This document shows, in pieces, positions 1,125 through 7,709 of a DNA stretch of 64,000 nucleotides. Position 1 is the stretch's first letter. Every line of letters starts with the position of its first letter. Under the pieces are notes generated by a model. The model worked only from the letters and a program-made list of their open reading frames with translations. It was not told the DNA's origin and did not search any database. Made by a program: the position numbers and the translations under genes. The DNA comes from Escherichia coli (GTDB taxonomy: Bacteria > Pseudomonadota > Gammaproteobacteria > Enterobacterales > Enterobacteriaceae): the NCBI RefSeq assembly GCF_030013595.1, contig NZ_CP122768.1, one strand, 5' to 3'.

Positions 1125-2750
1125 TTACACACACACTCCCCCCGTCGCCCGCAGCAATAAATCATTCTGGATCTGCTCTGACAACCGTACGCCGCCGCGC
1201 GTATCTAACATCACCTGACACCACGCCTGCGCCATTGGCGGAGAGGCATATTTCAACATTTGCGCACCGCAGCCCAGCAGGAATAGCTGATGAGTAATCT
1301 CTCGCCCCAGTTCTTCAGCTGGCTTACGCAGCTGCTGTTGTAAACGACGTACCGCGCGATCAAAATAGCGATCCTGCCCTTTCACTTCCACAAATGCTTC
1401 CGATAATAAGTCGTATACACCCGCTTGCTTATTGAGCACGCGCAGTACATCCAGGCACATAATATTACCGGAACCTTCCCAAATACTGTTTACCGGCATC
1501 TCCCGGTAAAGCCGCGGCAGCTCGCTCTCCTCGCTATAACCAATGCCGCCCAGCACCTCCATCGCTTCGGCCACAAACGGCATACCTCGTTTGCAGATCA
1601 CAAATTTCGCCGCAGGCGTAAATAAACGCGCCCACAGGGCTTCTTTGGCATCGGCACGCCGGTCCCACGCTCGCGCAAGACGAAACAGCAACGCCGTTTG
1701 CCCTTCAAGCTGAAGTGCCATGCGACTTAAGACATGACGCATAAGGGGCTGTTGGATCAATGGATTACCAAAAACATGGCGTTGATGGGCATGATAAATC
1801 GCCAGCGAAAATGCACGGCGCATCATGGCATGGCTACCCAGGGCGCAATCAAAACGCGTCATCCCACCCATTTTCAGGATCAGACGAATTCCTTCCCCTT
1901 CCTGCCCCAACAACCAGCCAATGGCATCCTGAAACTCCACTTCGCAGCTGGCGTTAGAGCGATTACCCAGCTTATCTTTCAGCCGCTCGAGGCGAATCGC
2001 GTTGCGTTGCCCGTCAGGCAAAAAGCGCGGCACAAAAAAGCAGGACAAACCGCCCGTAGTCTGCGCCAGCACCAGATGCGCATCGCTTTGCGGCACCGAG
2101 AAAAACCATTTATGCCCCACCAGCCGATAAGAGCCATCTTCCAGGCGCTCTGCGCGGGTGGTGTTGCTCATGACATCGGAACCGCCCTGCTTTTCCGTCA
2201 TTCCCATGCCAATCAACAAACCGCGTTTTTGCCCACCTGGCAATAAGTGAGAATCGTAGCGATCGCTCAACAGCGGCGTGCTCCAGTCCTGAAACGGCGC
2301 GGGTAACATCTGTAACAGCAATGGCGTGGCGGCAAAGGTCATCGTTATCGGACATAACGACCCTGCCTCAACCTGTGCGTGCAACATCAAACGCGCCGCG
2401 CGCGCCACAAATGCGCCGGAGCGAGCGTCTTCTTCCCAGGCAAGATTGTGCACCCGATTGGTACATAGCGCCTGCATCAATAGGTGCCAGGCGGGGTGAA
2501 AACGCACATCGTCCAGACGCCGCCCCTGGGCATCGTAGCGCAATAATTCAGGCGGATTCACATTCGCCAGCCGCCCCAGTTCAAGGGATTCAGCCGTTCC
2601 TAACTGCTGACCAATACTGGCTAGAAAATCGCTATCCCAGCCAGCACCTTCACGCGTTACCGCTTCGCAGAGCGCGCCATCAGACAGGTATAAGTTGCTG
2701 TTATTTAATGGTATAGGTTGATTAAAAACGGTGTGAGTTTGCCAGTGCAC
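1125..2750 (-). CDS. aidB: Isovaleryl-CoA dehydrogenase-like adaptive-response protein AidB (acyl-CoA dehydrogenase fold), 541 aa
   Basis: ORF 1125..2768; probable GTG start at 2750 (VHWQTHTVFNQPIPL...); acyl-CoA dehydrogenase-like sequence throughout. Confidence 0.9.
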   Translation of the reverse strand: MHWQTHTVFNQPIPLNNSNLYLSDGALCEAVTREGAGWDSDFLASIGQQLGTAESLELGRLANVNPPELLRYDAQGRRLDDVRFHPAWHLLMQALCTNRVHNLAWEEDARSGAFVARAARLMLHAQVEAGSLCPITMTFAATPLLLQMLPAPFQDWSTPLLSDRYDSHLLPGGQKRGLLIGMGMTEKQGGSDVMSNTTRAERLEDGSYRLVGHKWFFSVPQSDAHLVLAQTTGGLSCFFVPRFLPDGQRNAIRLERLKDKLGNRSNASCEVEFQDAIGWLLGQEGEGIRLILKMGGMTRFDCALGSHAMMRRAFSLAIYHAHQRHVFGNPLIQQPLMRHVLSRMALQLEGQTALLFRLARAWDRRADAKEALWARLFTPAAKFVICKRGMPFVAEAMEVLGGIGYSEESELPRLYREMPVNSIWEGSGNIMCLDVLRVLNKQAGVYDLLSEAFVEVKGQDRYFDRAVRRLQQQLRKPAEELGREITHQLFLLGCGAQMLKYASPPMAQAWCQVMLDTRGGVRLSEQIQNDLLLRATGGVCV

Positions 2751-2833
2751 TGTGTCTCCCTCCATCAATGGCAGTCACCCTTAGTATGGTCACTGCCATG
2801 GATTCCTGACAGAAAGAGATTGCTAAAACATTC

Positions 2834-3997
2834 TTATCCAGCAATGTAATGCGGAACGAAACGTGAGGTGTCTTTGGTGATCAGCGTGTTATCTTCACGG
2901 ATCCCCATTCCGCACGCTTCATCATCGACAATCCAGCTACCGATGAGTGTGTAGCTATCGCCAAATCGCGGCAGAGGTTGAAGCGCCTGGTAGATCATCG
3001 GTTCATCGGCGTAATCACCATCAGCGTGGTCAACGACGTTATTCTGACCGTCGAAAATGGTGACGTTTCCGCCTTCGCGTGAGTAGATCGGTTTACGCAC
3101 ATAGCTTTCGCCAGCGGCAATCTGCGGTTTTTCGCCCTCAAACCAGGATGCAAGAAGGTTAGGATGACCAGGAAAGAAACGCCAAAGCAGCGGCATTAAC
3201 CCTTTGTTGCTCAAGATACTTTTCCATAACGGCTCCACCCATTGCTCGCGGCGCTTGCGCAGCAGCGGACCGTTATCGTCACGCATCATCCACTCCAGCG
3301 GATACAGCTTAAATGCACGCTGGATGACATTATCATCAAGATCGGTCAGCACACCGCCGACGCCCAAACCGAGATCTTCAATGTAGATAAACCGCGACTC
3401 CTGCCCTGCCTGCTGGGCGCAGTCCTGCAAGTACAGCACGGTACTCCTGTCTTCATCGGTGTCCTGACAGCAGCAAAAATAAAACGGTTCCCGACTGTAA
3501 AGCTCACTAAAGCGCGAAATCAGGCGTTCCTGAATAGCATTGTACTGATCGGCATCACGCGGAATAATGCCGCTGCGCCGGGCATCCTCCAGCCACAGCC
3601 ACTGGAAATAAGCCGATTCATACAACGAGGTTGGCGTATCGGCGTTGTACTCCAGCAGCTTCACCGGCGCATTGCCACACCAGGCAAAATCCATCCGGCC
3701 ATAGAGCGAAGGATCGCGTGCGCGCCAGCTTTCGGCGATCACATCCCAGTACAACGGCGGGATCGCCAGTTGCGTCAGGATCTCTTCGTCTTTAACCGCG
3801 CGATCCACCACCTCAAGGCACATCTGATGCAGTTCCGCAGTTGGTTTTTCGATCTGCTCTTCAATCTGACGCAGGGTAAAGCGGTAAGCCCGACTCTCAT
3901 CCCAATAGATTTCATTGTCGATGATATGAAAGTCGAAACCGTTGTCAGCGGCGATCTGGTCCAGATCCCACCGTACAGGAACGTTGTGTCTCAGCAT
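2834..3997 (-). CDS. yjfC: Glutathionylspermidine-synthase-like ATP-grasp protein YjfC, 387 aa
   Basis: ORF 2834..4012 trimmed to ATG at 3997 (MLRHNVPVRW...); last gene of the co-directional yjfI-C cluster. Confidence 0.85.
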   Translation of the reverse strand: MLRHNVPVRWDLDQIAADNGFDFHIIDNEIYWDESRAYRFTLRQIEEQIEKPTAELHQMCLEVVDRAVKDEEILTQLAIPPLYWDVIAESWRARDPSLYGRMDFAWCGNAPVKLLEYNADTPTSLYESAYFQWLWLEDARRSGIIPRDADQYNAIQERLISRFSELYSREPFYFCCCQDTDEDRSTVLYLQDCAQQAGQESRFIYIEDLGLGVGGVLTDLDDNVIQRAFKLYPLEWMMRDDNGPLLRKRREQWVEPLWKSILSNKGLMPLLWRFFPGHPNLLASWFEGEKPQIAAGESYVRKPIYSREGGNVTIFDGQNNVVDHADGDYADEPMIYQALQPLPRFGDSYTLIGSWIVDDEACGMGIREDNTLITKDTSRFVPHYIAG

Positions 3998-3999
3998 GA

Positions 4000-4638
4000 T
4001 TAGCCTCCCCAATGCCCACGGGCGCTGGAAGAACGACCATAGCCGCCGCGAGAAACGGTTGACGCTTTTTTGGTGGTAAAGCCGCCCGAAGAATAGGACT
4101 CTTTTTTGCCAGAACCGGAGCGCCAGGAGTAATCACCGGAAGTGTTGCGCCAGACGGGGCGCGAAGCAAAAGAGGAACCGCCGCTGTTATACACAAACTG
4201 CTCGTCGCGATCTTTACGAATAACCCGGCTTAACAAAAATCCAGAAACAACCGGGATCCAACTCTGTTCAACGTTGTCGTAGTAACAATTTTCATACTTA
4301 GACTGACAATTCTGCTGAGTCATATTCTTCGGAACATCGGCATAAAACGCCGCTTTGGCGTTGTTCCAGCCATGAGCACAGATATCTGAATTATTACCGT
4401 CATCAATACAATCCTGCACAGTCGAGTAAAACGTTCCGTCGCCGTCGTTATCGACATCGCCACTATCGCCACAACCTTTCAATACGAAAAAAGCGGCACC
4501 GCCCATTAGCGCCAACGTTAAGTATTTTTGTGCGTAACGATTGCGACGCGGTTCAAAAGGATTATTCGGTCTACCAATGCGACTGATCGCTCCGTGACCA
4601 ATTTTACTGTTATTTCTTGATTTGCGTTTTCTGGCCAT
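4000..4638 (-). CDS. yjfM: Uncharacterised protein YjfM (DUF1190 by recollection), 212 aa, Gly/Ser-rich C-terminus
   Basis: Intact ORF in yjf operon; stop within 3 bp of yjfC start. Confidence 0.8.
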   Translation of the reverse strand: MARKRKSRNNSKIGHGAISRIGRPNNPFEPRRNRYAQKYLTLALMGGAAFFVLKGCGDSGDVDNDGDGTFYSTVQDCIDDGNNSDICAHGWNNAKAAFYADVPKNMTQQNCQSKYENCYYDNVEQSWIPVVSGFLLSRVIRKDRDEQFVYNSGGSSFASRPVWRNTSGDYSWRSGSGKKESYSSGGFTTKKASTVSRGGYGRSSSARGHWGG

Positions 4639-4647
4639 GATCGTCCA

Positions 4648-5046
4648 TTACCATGTCATACAAGCTGCGTTAAAAATACCGCCAGCCAGTGCGGCGGTTC
4701 CCATAAACATTCCTGCTGCGGTATTGTGATTAATAATTTTTTCGCTTAATGCGGGCATATAAAGTCTGACGCCAGCAAAAACGAGTAACTGAATCACCAG
4801 TGCGATCCCGCCCCAGGCGAAATAGTCTGGAATACTCACCGCATTGATTGCCGCACTGGATAAGGGGATCACGTAACCCAACAATGTACCGCTGAACGCC
4901 AGTGACGCCGCGGTATTATTGTTTTTGATTAACTGCCATTCGTTGTGCGGTGTAATTTTAGAATAGATAAACAGAAAAATAATCACCATAGCCACGCCAA
5001 TAAAAAAATAGGCACTAAAGGCAAGAAGAGAATCCAGTATATGCAT
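4648..5046 (-). CDS. yjfL: Small inner-membrane protein YjfL (DUF350-like), 132 aa
   Basis: ORF 4648..5127 trimmed to ATG at 5046 (MHILDSLLAFSAYFFIGVAMVII...); hydrophobic throughout. Confidence 0.8.
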   Translation of the reverse strand: MHILDSLLAFSAYFFIGVAMVIIFLFIYSKITPHNEWQLIKNNNTAASLAFSGTLLGYVIPLSSAAINAVSIPDYFAWGGIALVIQLLVFAGVRLYMPALSEKIINHNTAAGMFMGTAALAGGIFNAACMTW

Positions 5047-5063
5047 TGTAAACGTCCTTGTAA

Positions 5064-5723
5064 TTAACCAATAATATGAAGTGATGTCAGCGGGATATCG
5101 ACACCCAACGCGCGCGAAAATAACCACTCTGGCTCGCCGAGATCGTTAAAAGATTCCTCACCATTTAGCAGCAAATATTCGTAAGTATCTTCGGTTACTT
5201 GCCGTTGGTAGCCCATGGTAAAATTATGTACTTCCCATTTGGCATGGTTTTGATTTTCTACTTTTTCCAGCATGTAGACGGGTTCGATATTTCCCGGTTC
5301 TTCGCTGTTAAAAAATCGCTGCCAGCGTTTTTCCTGCCAGTTTAAGGTCATTGCCCCCATCGCTTTGGCATTGATCGTCTCGCGCCAGTGACTCTCTTTA
5401 CTGATACCGTAGCTCTCTTCATAGACAAAGAGCTTGATATCATCAATGTCATCAATATTTTCGCCGCCGGTGGTATTGATTTGCAGAAACTCATCGCCTG
5501 AAGTGTAGTAGCGGAAAATCTGGCTACCGCCGCCCAGATCGATGTGACTGACAGCGGCTACCGTAAATTCCTCACCCGGCAGCGCAATCAGCAATTCATC
5601 TTCCAGCAAACGAAATGCTAACGTGTCGAGCGTAAAGCCACTATTGAGATGCAGACCCAGCGGACCGCGAGCGATAGCAGGCTTATTATCCTTGCCAAAG
5701 AGACGCTGGAAAAAACCAGACAT
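5064..5723 (-). CDS. yjfK: Uncharacterised protein YjfK (DUF2491 by recollection), 219 aa
   Basis: Intact ORF (MSGFFQRLFGKDNKPAIARGPLGL...); yjf operon position. Confidence 0.8.
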   Translation of the reverse strand: MSGFFQRLFGKDNKPAIARGPLGLHLNSGFTLDTLAFRLLEDELLIALPGEEFTVAAVSHIDLGGGSQIFRYYTSGDEFLQINTTGGENIDDIDDIKLFVYEESYGISKESHWRETINAKAMGAMTLNWQEKRWQRFFNSEEPGNIEPVYMLEKVENQNHAKWEVHNFTMGYQRQVTEDTYEYLLLNGEESFNDLGEPEWLFSRALGVDIPLTSLHIIG

Positions 5724-5772
5724 ATTTTATCCTTAAAATAGTTGCCAGCCTTGCAGTGAGGCTGGCAAAAAA

Positions 5773-6471
5773 TTACTCGCCCTGTTGGCGTTGCAGTCTT
5801 GCTAATACATCCTGGGCGCTACTTTTATTGCTACCGCCTATTCCGGCTTCCGCCAGCTTTTCATCAAGATCGCGACCGTCTGCGACTTTTTCCAACTGTG
5901 CAGCAGCATCCAGGCGAGCCTGACGTTCGGCCTGACGCGTTTGCAGGCGTTTTAAGGATTCTGCCGCTGTCGAAACGCTGGAAGATGCGCCAACGGTAGA
6001 GGTCGTTACAGCCTGTTGTGCACGCTGCATGGCTTCAGTAGCTTTAACGACTTCCATTTGCTGCTCAAACTGAGCGATACGCTGCGCTGTCGCTGTAACT
6101 GCTTTTTCCACGCCATCACGAGAGACTTCCAGATTCGACAACACTTGCTCTTCAGCGGTAATGAGATTCTCAAGGCGCGCGATTTCTTCAGCAACTTCGT
6201 TAATCAACGACGGATTAACGTTCTTGCTTAACGCTTCCAGCGCACGGGCTTCCAGACTGGCTTTGCGCTCACGTAAATCTTTCAGCTTATCGTGACTTAA
6301 TTTCACCCGCGCCAGCAGATCAACGCGAGATTTTCCGGCTTTATCGAGTTCAGCTTTAGCGTCACGAATATGCTGTTCCAGCATGCGCACGCCCTGGGTT
6401 TCTTCAATGGATTCTTCCGCCTGAGAGATAAACGATTTCCCCAGCGTAAATAAACTTTTTAAAATTCCCAT
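5773..6471 (-). CDS. yjfJ: PspA/IM30-family coiled-coil protein YjfJ, 232 aa
   Basis: Intact ORF; long heptad-like Ala/Glu/Arg/Leu/Gln-rich helices typical of the PspA/Vipp1 family. Confidence 0.85.
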   Translation of the reverse strand: MGILKSLFTLGKSFISQAEESIEETQGVRMLEQHIRDAKAELDKAGKSRVDLLARVKLSHDKLKDLRERKASLEARALEALSKNVNPSLINEVAEEIARLENLITAEEQVLSNLEVSRDGVEKAVTATAQRIAQFEQQMEVVKATEAMQRAQQAVTTSTVGASSSVSTAAESLKRLQTRQAERQARLDAAAQLEKVADGRDLDEKLAEAGIGGSNKSSAQDVLARLQRQQGE

Positions 6472-6489
6472 AAATACCCGTCCTTGTAA

Positions 6490-6891
6490 TTAGAGTGAAT
6501 ATTCTTCTGTAATTTCAGCCAGATCCAATGCGTTATCTACCAGCGAGGTTATCTCAAGCAGGATATCTTCAAGAGAAGATTTAAGCGATAACGCCCCGAA
6601 AACAATGTAATACTCTTCATGTTGCACGCTGGAGATCCCTACCGATGACAACGGCATCATCTTCTGATTTCTTAATAAGAAGGTATTAAATTCATCTGGA
6701 TTGCTGATACTACTTACCGGACAAATAAAGGTTTCGATAATCATTTGGCGGGAAGTAAATAGAATATTGATTTGCAAATCGCCATAATCATTCATTTTAA
6801 TAATTAATGCGTTCTCGCCATTTGTTACATCAATATTTTGTTCAGGTACAGTTTGCAGCGCCGTCGCCAGCGCCAACGGATTCCATGTCAT
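6490..6891 (-). CDS. yjfI: Uncharacterised protein YjfI (DUF2170 by recollection), 133 aa
   Basis: Intact ORF, ATG at 6889-6891; first gene of yjfIJKLMC; AT-rich promoter-like sequence upstream at 6892-6970. Confidence 0.8.
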   Translation of the reverse strand: MTWNPLALATALQTVPEQNIDVTNGENALIIKMNDYGDLQINILFTSRQMIIETFICPVSSISNPDEFNTFLLRNQKMMPLSSVGISSVQHEEYYIVFGALSLKSSLEDILLEITSLVDNALDLAEITEEYSL

Positions 6892-6971
6892 ATATTATTC
6901 CATATAAATTAAGTTTAAATATTAATAAAATGAATATTTGCAGTACGTAATTATCTTACCAGCTATAGACA

Positions 6972-7680
6972 AATAAATATCCTCCGGCATAGCCGGAGGT
7001 TTTTCAAATGCGCCTGTAAGGCTCTGTTACCAGCCGCGCCCTAACAGGCGCATACGATCTGACATTTGCATTCAACTTCGTTACTTACGGCCCGTAAACG
7101 GGCTGCCCGGATATGGAATCGATAACTGCTCCCCCATTTTATCCTCTTCAAGCTGGTGCTTTATGTAGTCCTGTATCTTCGCCGTGTTCTTACCCACCGT
7201 ATCGACATAGTACCCTCGGCACCAGAACTCCCTGTTTCTGTATTTGAATTTCAAATCCCCAAACTGCTCGTAAAGCATCAGACTGCTTTTCCCTTTCAGA
7301 TATCCCATAAAGCCGGATACGCTCATTTTGGGTGGGATTTCCACAAGCATATGGATATGATCTGCGCAGCACTCTGCTTCCAGAATCCGTACGCTTTTCC
7401 ACTCACACAGCTTTCTCAAAATACTGCCTATCGCCCTACGCTTCTCTCCGTAAAACGCCAGTCTTCGGTATTTCGGCGCAAAAACTATGTGATATTTACA
7501 GTTCCAGCGGGTGTGCGCTAAGCTCTTTTCGTCCCCCATTGGGACCCCCTTTTGATTTCTTGTTTGACACTTGCAGTTGCCAGACCGCAAGGTGTTTTAA
7601 CAAATCAAAAGGGGTTTTAATAACTGGCTCAAAGCTGAAAGCTTTCCGGAACCCCCAGCCTAGCTGGGGGTTTTCTGTGC
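6972..7680 (-). mobile_element. IS200 insertion sequence (IS200/IS605 family), about 707 bp; ends estimated to within roughly 10 bp
   Basis: Contains tnpA (7081-7539); subterminal hairpin 7652-7670 (cccccagc/gctggggg); stem-loop 7546-7614 pairing the Shine-Dalgarno sequence; hairpins 6981-6999 and 7008-7053 at the other end; rlmB-to-yjfI spacing is about 710 bp longer than I expect for the native intergenic region. Confidence 0.8.
7081..7539 (-). CDS. tnpA: IS200 transposase TnpA (Y1/HUH single-strand transposase), 152 aa
   Basis: ORF 7081..7590 trimmed to ATG at 7539 (MGDEKSLAHTRWNCKYHIVFAPKYRR...HIHMLVEIPPK...); HxH motif and catalytic Tyr region recognisable. Confidence 0.9.
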   Translation of the reverse strand: MGDEKSLAHTRWNCKYHIVFAPKYRRLAFYGEKRRAIGSILRKLCEWKSVRILEAECCADHIHMLVEIPPKMSVSGFMGYLKGKSSLMLYEQFGDLKFKYRNREFWCRGYYVDTVGKNTAKIQDYIKHQLEEDKMGEQLSIPYPGSPFTGRK

Positions 7681-7682
7681 AC

Positions 7683-7709
7683 AAAAAAAAACCATCCAAA
7701 TCTGGATGG
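7683..7709 (-). terminator. Rho-independent terminator downstream of rlmB
   Basis: Minus strand reads gccatccagatttggatgg followed by nine T, about 20 nt after the rlmB stop. Confidence 0.6.

Follow-up and report, generated by a model that had tools for sequence, protein, structure and literature searches.

Within the 64,000-nucleotide (nt) stretch of Escherichia coli DNA analyzed here, which we call the window (contig NZ_CP122768.1 of assembly GCF_030013595.1), positions 2834-6891 on the minus strand hold six intact, co-directional, and densely spaced open reading frames (ORFs): yjfI, yjfJ, yjfK, yjfL, yjfM, and yjfC. The question that concerns us is what these genes do in one another's company, and in particular, what the ligase at the end of the string acts on. 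The operon matters on several counts: among its products are one of the few ESCRT-III-family proteins of bacteria and an enzyme for which the citing papers drawn on here report no natural substrate (for the paralogue YgiC, they state it to be unknown), and it is under strong purifying selection although its yjfIJKL part is silent under laboratory conditions.

The locus is almost certainly the known core-genome operon yjfIJKLMC of E. coli (b4181-b4186), in which two evolutionary modules are joined in one gene string. Both the operon itself and the operon class to which it belongs were already known. What we add is the dissection into two modules, the loss of a channel gene from between yjfJ and yjfK, and a testable candidate for the ligase's natural substrate.

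The operon and its two modules

Gene starts were refined from the RefSeq annotation of near-identical E. coli loci, which moved two of them: the yjfL ORF as listed (4648-5127) starts too early and was shortened to 4648-5046, and that of yjfC, listed as starting at 4012, now spans 2834-3997. In the order of transcription, the genes and one structured spacer are these.

6490-6891, minus strand: yjfI, DUF2170, CesT/Tir-like chaperone family, 133 amino acids (aa)
5773-6471, minus strand: yjfJ, PspA/IM30/Vipp1 (bacterial ESCRT-III) paralogue, 232 aa
5742-5768, minus strand: stem-loop (10-bp stem) in the 49-nt yjfJ-yjfK spacer (5724-5772), -17.1 kcal/mol, z-score -3.05; terminator-like, followed by the yjfK Shine-Dalgarno sequence
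5064-5723, minus strand: yjfK, DUF2491, cytoplasmic all-beta protein, 219 aa
4648-5046, minus strand: yjfL, DUF350 integral membrane protein, 132 aa
4000-4638, minus strand: yjfM, DUF1190 envelope protein, 212 aa
2834-3997, minus strand: yjfC, ATP-grasp acid-amine ligase of the GSP_synth family, synthetase domain only, 387 aa

The gaps from yjfI to yjfC are, in order, 18, 49, 17, 9, and 2 nt. A Pfam search assigned one family to each protein, every match well over its threshold, with E-values of 5.2e-44 (DUF2170), 5.3e-58 (PspA_IM30), 2e-71 (DUF2491), 2e-33 (DUF350), 7e-18 (DUF1190), and 1.4e-148 (GSP_synth). The operon is flanked by rnr-rlmB upstream and aidB downstream, its DNA is 96-100% identical to that of other E. 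coli chromosomes, and it occurs, single-copy and syntenic between rlmB and aidB, in 5,425 of 5,426 complete E. coli genomes. Compared with E. whittamii, all six genes have pN/pS values of 0.02-0.11, which is to say that they are under purifying selection and are therefore maintained as working genes. Interruptions do occur: IS1 lies within the operon in at least one E. coli genome (NZ_AP027679.1), and about 100 of the 5,426 genomes cover less than 80% of it, so that natural knock-outs are occasionally met with.

A first-pass annotation, made from the letters of the window, had described six packed co-directional genes at 2834-6891, named them yjfIJKLMC, placed an IS200 immediately upstream, and assigned YjfJ to PspA/IM30 and YjfC to the ATP-grasp ligases that resemble glutathionylspermidine synthetase. 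The ORFs, the refined starts, and the Pfam matches agree with that description, and the IS200 does lie just upstream, 79 nt from yjfI. The two family assignments stand after a profile search with each protein (PF04012 over its full length and a match of its orthologue profile to solved Vipp1/PspA chains for YjfJ; PF03738 and near-identity to 7UK6/7UK7 for YjfC), and the six-gene cluster recurs when its neighborhood is followed through 80 loci, albeit as two modules. What must be given up is the description of YjfL as "tiny," for it is a DUF350 protein of 132 aa.

How constant is this company of genes? The 80 genomic loci, fetched with a YjfC/YgiC alignment, were annotated by means of the six window proteins, and 69 of them had enough upstream sequence to be classified. 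Gene content was IJKLMC in 46 loci, L-(M)-C in 11, (M)-C of the ygiBC type in 10, and IJKLC with M undetected in 2. Across all 69, yjfI, yjfJ, and yjfK are present together or absent together; this all-or-none behavior, along with the loci that have only L-M-C or M-C, therefore divides the cluster in two: I-J-K form a PspA module, and L-M-C form a ligase module whose irreducible core is the M-C pair. The DUF350 gene stands immediately 5' of the DUF1190 gene in I-J-K-L-M-C and L-M-C loci alike. Some clusters have been rearranged, reading I-J-C-K-L-M or setting K-L divergent from I-J-C (L085, 950-5663, and L064), and in these the six families are unchanged. Three divergent DUF1190 proteins, picked with no regard to the ligase, all turned out to be encoded beside DUF350 and GSP_synth genes.

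Between yjfJ and yjfK, most six-gene loci (a few from enterobacteria and one from a divergent Escherichia among them) carry a seventh gene, about 350 codons long, whose product has a K+ selectivity filter (TVGYGD/TLGFGD) and matches Ion_trans_2 and TrkA_N (in locus L005, it lies at 3070-4140). When the window is aligned with that channel-bearing locus, homology ends at the yjfJ stop codon and restarts at the yjfK ATG, so that the 49-nt hairpin spacer occupies the position of the channel gene. E. coli has lost the K+ channel gene from this place.

Residues 2-232 of YjfJ align with profile positions 1-220 of the 220 in PF04012, and a profile built from 25 YjfJ orthologues matches solved Vipp1/PspA chains (8QBR, 8QBW, and 6ZVR) at about 5e-9 over residues 1-228; a search of solved structures with the single YjfJ sequence returned no match. 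Residues 2-19 are amphipathic, with a hydrophobic moment (muH) of 0.45 vs. 0.20 +- 0.10 in 2,000 shuffles, 1.1% of which reach the observed value. The profile match and the amphipathic N-terminus support a PspA-like role at the cytoplasmic face of the inner membrane, and YjfJ probably has such a role. YjfI matches PF09938 (DUF2170) and, at 5.8e-17 over residues 3-128, the crystal structure of Pseudomonas aeruginosa BacA (8Q8O). Its 94 bits (8e-27) against the NCBIfam BacA model fall short of the cut-off (300), and YjfI therefore does not qualify as a BacA equivalog. It has neither a signal peptide nor a segment of transmembrane (TM) grade. BacA is a CesT-like dimer, and a CesT-like fold for DUF2170 has been reported twice (Ravi 2024; Wallart 2024). 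That YjfI binds YjfJ has as its sole support the conservation of the gene pair across loci. YjfK, an all-beta protein of the cytoplasm, has no relative of solved structure and is not a porin.

A polyamine ligase and the Gly-Gly end of its neighbor

YjfC shares 383 of its 387 residues with the crystallized E. coli protein of that name (7UK6/7UK7; E-value 2e-272) and is 52% identical to its paralogue YgiC. It matches only the synthetase part of the 619-aa GspS and of trypanothione synthetase (E-values 1e-33 to 1e-38), and with 166 bits against the NCBIfam GspS model (cut-off 882), it does not belong with the bifunctional GspS enzymes (EC 6.3.1.8). Papers citing Pederick 2023 describe YgiC and YjfC as peptide-spermidine ligases in vitro; according to such papers, YgiC has no glutathionylspermidine synthetase activity, and its physiological substrate is unknown. 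What, then, could be the carboxylate to which such an enzyme joins a polyamine?

We argue that a candidate is encoded next door. The DUF1190 gene is directly upstream of the ligase gene, the stop and start codons often overlapping. The N-terminus of YjfM is basic; it is followed by a signal or anchor segment whose lipobox is degenerate (VLKGC), by a domain with four conserved Cys, and by a disordered basic tail that ends ...SRGGYGRSSSARGHWGG-COOH. In its predicted structure, residues 68-175 are largely confident (with a dip at about 141-150), the tail is disordered, and a hydrophobic motif forms beta-strands. The end of this tail is nearly invariant: in 73 of the 80 loci, the DUF1190 protein finishes with Gly-Gly, as ...WGG in proteins of the YjfM type and as ...S[F/M/L]GG in those of the YgiB type. 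An exhaustive search for the family, reduced to 114 full-length representatives at 50% identity, gave the same picture, with 92 ending in GG and 15 in GS, and with W or F the commonest residue before the glycines. Ahead of this ending come a conserved SRGGFG motif and then a Ser/Gly/Arg-rich tail of variable length, which is basic (median net charge, +5).

One might suppose that the glycines are a by-product of the Shine-Dalgarno sequence of the ligase gene or of an ATGA overlap. We reject this: the glycines at each position are encoded by all four Gly codons, a GGAGG is present in just 23 of 76 loci, and 13 loci whose ligase gene starts 15-522 nt away still have WGG. The DUF1190 proteins of the rearranged clusters also still end ...SWGG. 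The diversity of codons, the persistence of WGG where the ligase gene is distant, and the rearranged clusters together indicate that Gly-Gly is conserved at the level of the protein.

GspS activates the glycine carboxylate of glutathione, and the free, flexible Gly-Gly-COOH of YjfM is therefore a candidate acceptor for its relative YjfC. That the terminal glycine carboxylate of YjfM is the natural acceptor is a tentative proposal, drawn from the analogy just given; that YjfC and YgiC are, more generally, protein C-terminal polyamine ligases, placing spermidine on the Gly-Gly-COOH of YjfM and YgiB before export, is a little more doubtful still. The larger explanation of the cluster that we favor, and to which we give about even chances, runs as follows. 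YjfJ would most likely use its amphipathic N-terminal helix to attach to the inner membrane on the cytoplasmic side, polymerize there, and stabilize or repair the membrane; YjfI, as a CesT/Tir-type chaperone, would probably hold or deliver YjfJ; and YjfK, which always travels with the other two, would probably be an adaptor. YjfC, the ATP-grasp enzyme, joins spermidine to a peptide carboxylate, as others have shown in vitro. YjfM would be an exported, membrane-anchored protein, its tail spermidinylated prior to export, and that polycationic tail would work on the outer side of the inner membrane, with the PspA module protecting the inner side.

If this is true, the attachment of spermidine to the C-terminus of an exported protein would be a bacterial posttranslational modification not described before, connected in many Gammaproteobacteria with an ESCRT-III-like module for membrane repair and with a K+ channel. 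The near-universal aromatic-Gly-Gly end makes the question of the YjfC/YgiC target testable by mass spectrometry.

Several observations weigh against this explanation, and they concern where the tail is and when the genes are expressed. A lipobox-like motif is found in 95 of the 114 DUF1190 representatives, which points to signals of the lipoprotein type (in E. coli YjfM itself, there is a basic extension of 38 aa and the motif is an unusual VLKGC, and certain enteric members lack the Cys). Could a second TM helix in YjfM return the tail to the cytoplasm? We reject the idea, because no member of the DUF1190 family reaches a KD19 of 1.6 after the signal region (the best value is at most 1.39), and the conserved hydrophobic motif (P...G) is modeled as beta-strands inside a compact domain. 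Given lipoprotein-type signals, no second TM segment, and beta-strands in the motif, the tail is therefore predicted to be periplasmic. A periplasmic tail and a cytoplasmic, ATP-dependent ligase can be reconciled only if modification precedes export, which is an extra assumption. Moreover, the iModulon found in heat-evolved E. coli includes yjfIJKL and leaves out yjfMC (Rychel 2025), and the two modules may for that reason not be co-expressed. We asked whether an internal hairpin resembling a terminator, near the 3' end of yjfL (4678-4698), could account for the absence of yjfMC, and its z-score of -0.37 gives that no support.

YjfL has a KD19 maximum of 2.59 and about four hydrophobic segments. 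It too has a strongly conserved extreme C-terminus, ...LNAACM[S/T][Y/W]-COOH (loci L003-L082; 4648-4680 in the window), which by the positive-inside rule should face the periplasm, like the predicted tail of YjfM.

The chief rival of the YjfM-acceptor hypothesis is that no protein end is involved at all. YjfC would make a small, soluble peptide-polyamine conjugate, YjfL and YjfM would handle or sense the conjugate or polyamines at the membrane, and the Gly-Gly of YjfM would have a function in the periplasm that does not involve the ligase, for example in protein docking or in resistance to proteases. We regard this as possible, at somewhat less than one chance in three. The mismatch of a cytoplasmic ligase and a periplasmic tail favors it, as does the activity on peptides in vitro that the citing papers report, along with their statement that the physiological substrate of YgiC is unknown. 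A citing paper also relates that a tolC mutant grows still more poorly when yjfMC and ygiBC are deleted together (Dhamdhere 2010), and this genetic link with TolC efflux, to the extent that it is described there, is in keeping with a metabolite whose level has to be balanced; ygiB is likewise said, in a citing paper, to be under Cpx regulation. Yet a soluble conjugate leaves unexplained both the near-inseparability of DUF1190 from the ligase and the resemblance of the DUF1190 end to the glycine-carboxylate substrate of GspS, and the cluster encodes no candidate small peptide.

A second possibility, which we consider unlikely, is the one to which Ravi 2024 leads: that a system monitoring polyamine or K+ status has the PspA-CesT pair as its effector, and that no protein is modified. 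The ligase and, where it is present, the channel would adjust the levels of solutes and polyamines, and PspA would remodel the membrane in response. PspA-CesT dyads are indeed linked, repeatedly, to polyamine enzymes and a ligand-gated K+ channel (Ravi 2024), and we find that channel, with its Ion_trans_2 and TrkA_N matches, in most of our loci. However, the six genes have outlasted the channel in E. coli and several other lineages, L-M-C and M-C persist with no PspA gene in the cluster, and the conserved terminus of DUF1190 goes unaccounted for.

Very improbable is the proposal of Rychel 2025 that YjfJ, YjfK, and YjfL build pore-like structures into the envelope, with YjfK a primitive outer-membrane porin and YjfI a periplasmic lipoprotein, and that they raise membrane viscosity or export misfolded proteins at high temperature. 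Strong induction of yjfIJKL in all heat-evolved E. coli strains, brought about by a T9->8 change, speaks for it (Rychel 2025). We reject the porin, since YjfK has no signal peptide and no structural likeness to outer-membrane barrels. As for an antiphage or other conflict system built on a PspA-like protein, the idea is scarcely credible: PspA was originally found as a phage-shock protein and one metagenomic homologue adjoins SIR2/TIR and STAND genes, but an operon that is core, single-copy, syntenic, and under strong purifying selection is unlike a defense island, and we reject a defense system on the result with PADLOC models, which matched none of the five other operon proteins and gave for YjfJ only coiled-coil noise (5e-4 and 2e-3).

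IS200 and the flanks of the operon

Upstream of yjfI, the window departs from nearly all of its relatives, as the following features show (the IS200 bounds come from aligning the window, in which the site is filled, with one IS-free and one IS-bearing E. coli).

7683-7709, minus strand: intrinsic terminator of rlmB, hairpin and T9 tract, -18.2 kcal/mol, z-score -4.55
6971-7682, minus strand: complete IS200, 712 bp, in the same orientation as the operon
7646-7674 (approximately), minus strand: left-end hairpin of IS200
7549-7672, minus strand: STnc490 (Rfam) in the 5' untranslated region (UTR) of tnpA, 146 bits, full model
7081-7539, minus strand: tnpA of IS200 (Y1_Tnp PF01797, 1e-36; NCBIfam IS200 NF033573, 3e-42)
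6971-6999, minus strand: right-end hairpin of IS200 and T-rich tail, -19.4 kcal/mol, z-score -4.5
6892-6970, minus strand: native AT-rich 79-nt region 5' of yjfI, identical in the IS-free and IS-bearing E. coli

The element has what defines the IS200/IS605 family, namely a Y1 (HUH) transposase, structured ends, and a clean empty site in relatives. It is the only IS200 copy in the window; one end is 79 nt upstream of the yjfI ATG, and the insertion point lies directly after the T9 of the rlmB terminator. An IS200 is present at this site in 4 of the 5,426 complete E. coli genomes. A pig isolate has the identical operon, over 4,137 of 4,137 bases, without IS200; the insertion therefore appears to be very recent, with no time to have affected the coding sequences.

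The site has a history in the laboratory. A supplementary table in Rychel 2025 lists (T)9->8 at rlmB/yjfI (+47/-80) as activating yjfIJKL in heat-evolved E. coli, and it is this same T9 tract that IS200 abuts. The tract is now 712 bp further from yjfI, and the sequence beyond -79 has been replaced by the right end of IS200, which is likewise a GC hairpin followed by a T-rich run. The retained 79 nt should hold the core promoter and 5' UTR. No consensus sigma-70 promoter passed a scan of those 79 nt; by eye, a -10-like hexamer, GATAAT, can be made out. IS200 would displace upstream sequence and add two hairpin terminators against read-through from rnr-rlmB. Our likeliest reading, held with rather less than even confidence, is that the insertion alters regulation of the operon; expression may go up, go down, or stay as it was. 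The coding capacity of the operon is untouched. The allele is, in any case, a natural variant with which to study how the operon stays off, sitting on a T-tract that mutated in laboratory evolution.

Three side observations belong here. The IS200 copies at this site in the window and in strain MS 69-1 differ by about 3% (by eye) between nearly identical short flanks, which points either to separate insertion events at a hot spot or to a long-standing polymorphism. MS 69-1, a natural IS200-bearing strain, has T8 at the position of the T9 tract. STnc490 is an Hfq-binding RNA, and this IS200 copy could supply it as a small RNA acting in trans.

At the other end of the operon, the 83-nt spacer between yjfC and aidB (2745-2845, minus strand) has a very stable fold (-39.3 kcal/mol, z-score -4.5) with no U-tract behind it. 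Its long stem pairs with GGAGGGAGA immediately 5' of the GTG start of aidB, and translation of aidB from transcripts that read through from yjfC might be poor because of this stem. Downstream of aidB, at 156-1008 on the plus strand, are two small genes of the DUF1471 type, bsmA and yjfN by synteny, which are ordinary neighbors outside the operon.

The yjf genes among known systems

The first-pass annotation had read the operon as a membrane-stress module coupled to a peptide or polyamine ligase, and we have come to the same reading. It had also called the operon not functionally characterized, and here it went too far: structures and ligase activity for YjfC, the operon class of 2024, the structure of a YjfI homologue, heat induction, and genetics with tolC have all been published, so that the characterization it had named as grounds for abandoning the claim exists in part. 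Even so, a 2026 review finds YjfJ still little known, and the citing papers report the physiological substrate of YgiC as unknown.

The nearest kin of the operon is the class delineated by comparative genomics in Ravi 2024, which comprises a CesT/Tir-PspA pair, an ATP-grasp ligase, a K+ channel, DUF350, a DUF1190 lipoprotein, and DUF2491, and for which a link between PspA-based membrane dynamics and polyamines was proposed. The yjfIJKLMC operon of E. coli K-12 has the same genes, gene order, and chromosomal neighbors as the window, which differs by the IS200 at -79; the class usually has the K+ channel gene, and E. coli does not.

The phage-shock system (pspF/pspABCDE) and LiaIH of Bacillus likewise have as effector a PspA/IM30 protein with an amphipathic N-terminus, and the small membrane protein of the yjf cluster may play the part of PspB/C or LiaI. 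The partners of YjfJ are different ones, a CesT-like chaperone, DUF2491, and a polyamine ligase module. No PspB, PspC, or PspF family member occurs among the operon and its neighbors (rlmB, IS200, and aidB), nor is there a two-component regulator in or beside the cluster, which is thus not a canonical Psp regulon. Similar in one respect is the bac cluster of P. aeruginosa (BacA, PA3732; BacB, PA3731), where DUF2170 is again followed by PspA_IM30; it has four genes and is without the ligase, DUF350, DUF1190, and DUF2491.

On the side of the ligase, GspS/Gss and trypanothione synthetase have the homologous ATP-grasp domain and the same chemistry, in which a carboxylate is activated by ATP and amidated with spermidine; GspS has an amidase domain as well, which YjfC lacks. 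For modification of a protein C-terminus, there is a precedent in RimK, an ATP-grasp ligase that modifies the C-terminal carboxylate of ribosomal protein S6. The parallel is one of analogy only: RimK belongs to another ATP-grasp subfamily and adds glutamates to a cytoplasmic protein, whereas the acceptor of YjfC would be exported and would receive a polyamine. A further parallel is the paralogous ygiBC, downstream of tolC. It comes without DUF350 or a PspA module and places F, M, or L rather than W before the glycines, and it is nonetheless the same pair of a DUF1190 protein and a ligase, with YgiB-type proteins that also end in Gly-Gly.

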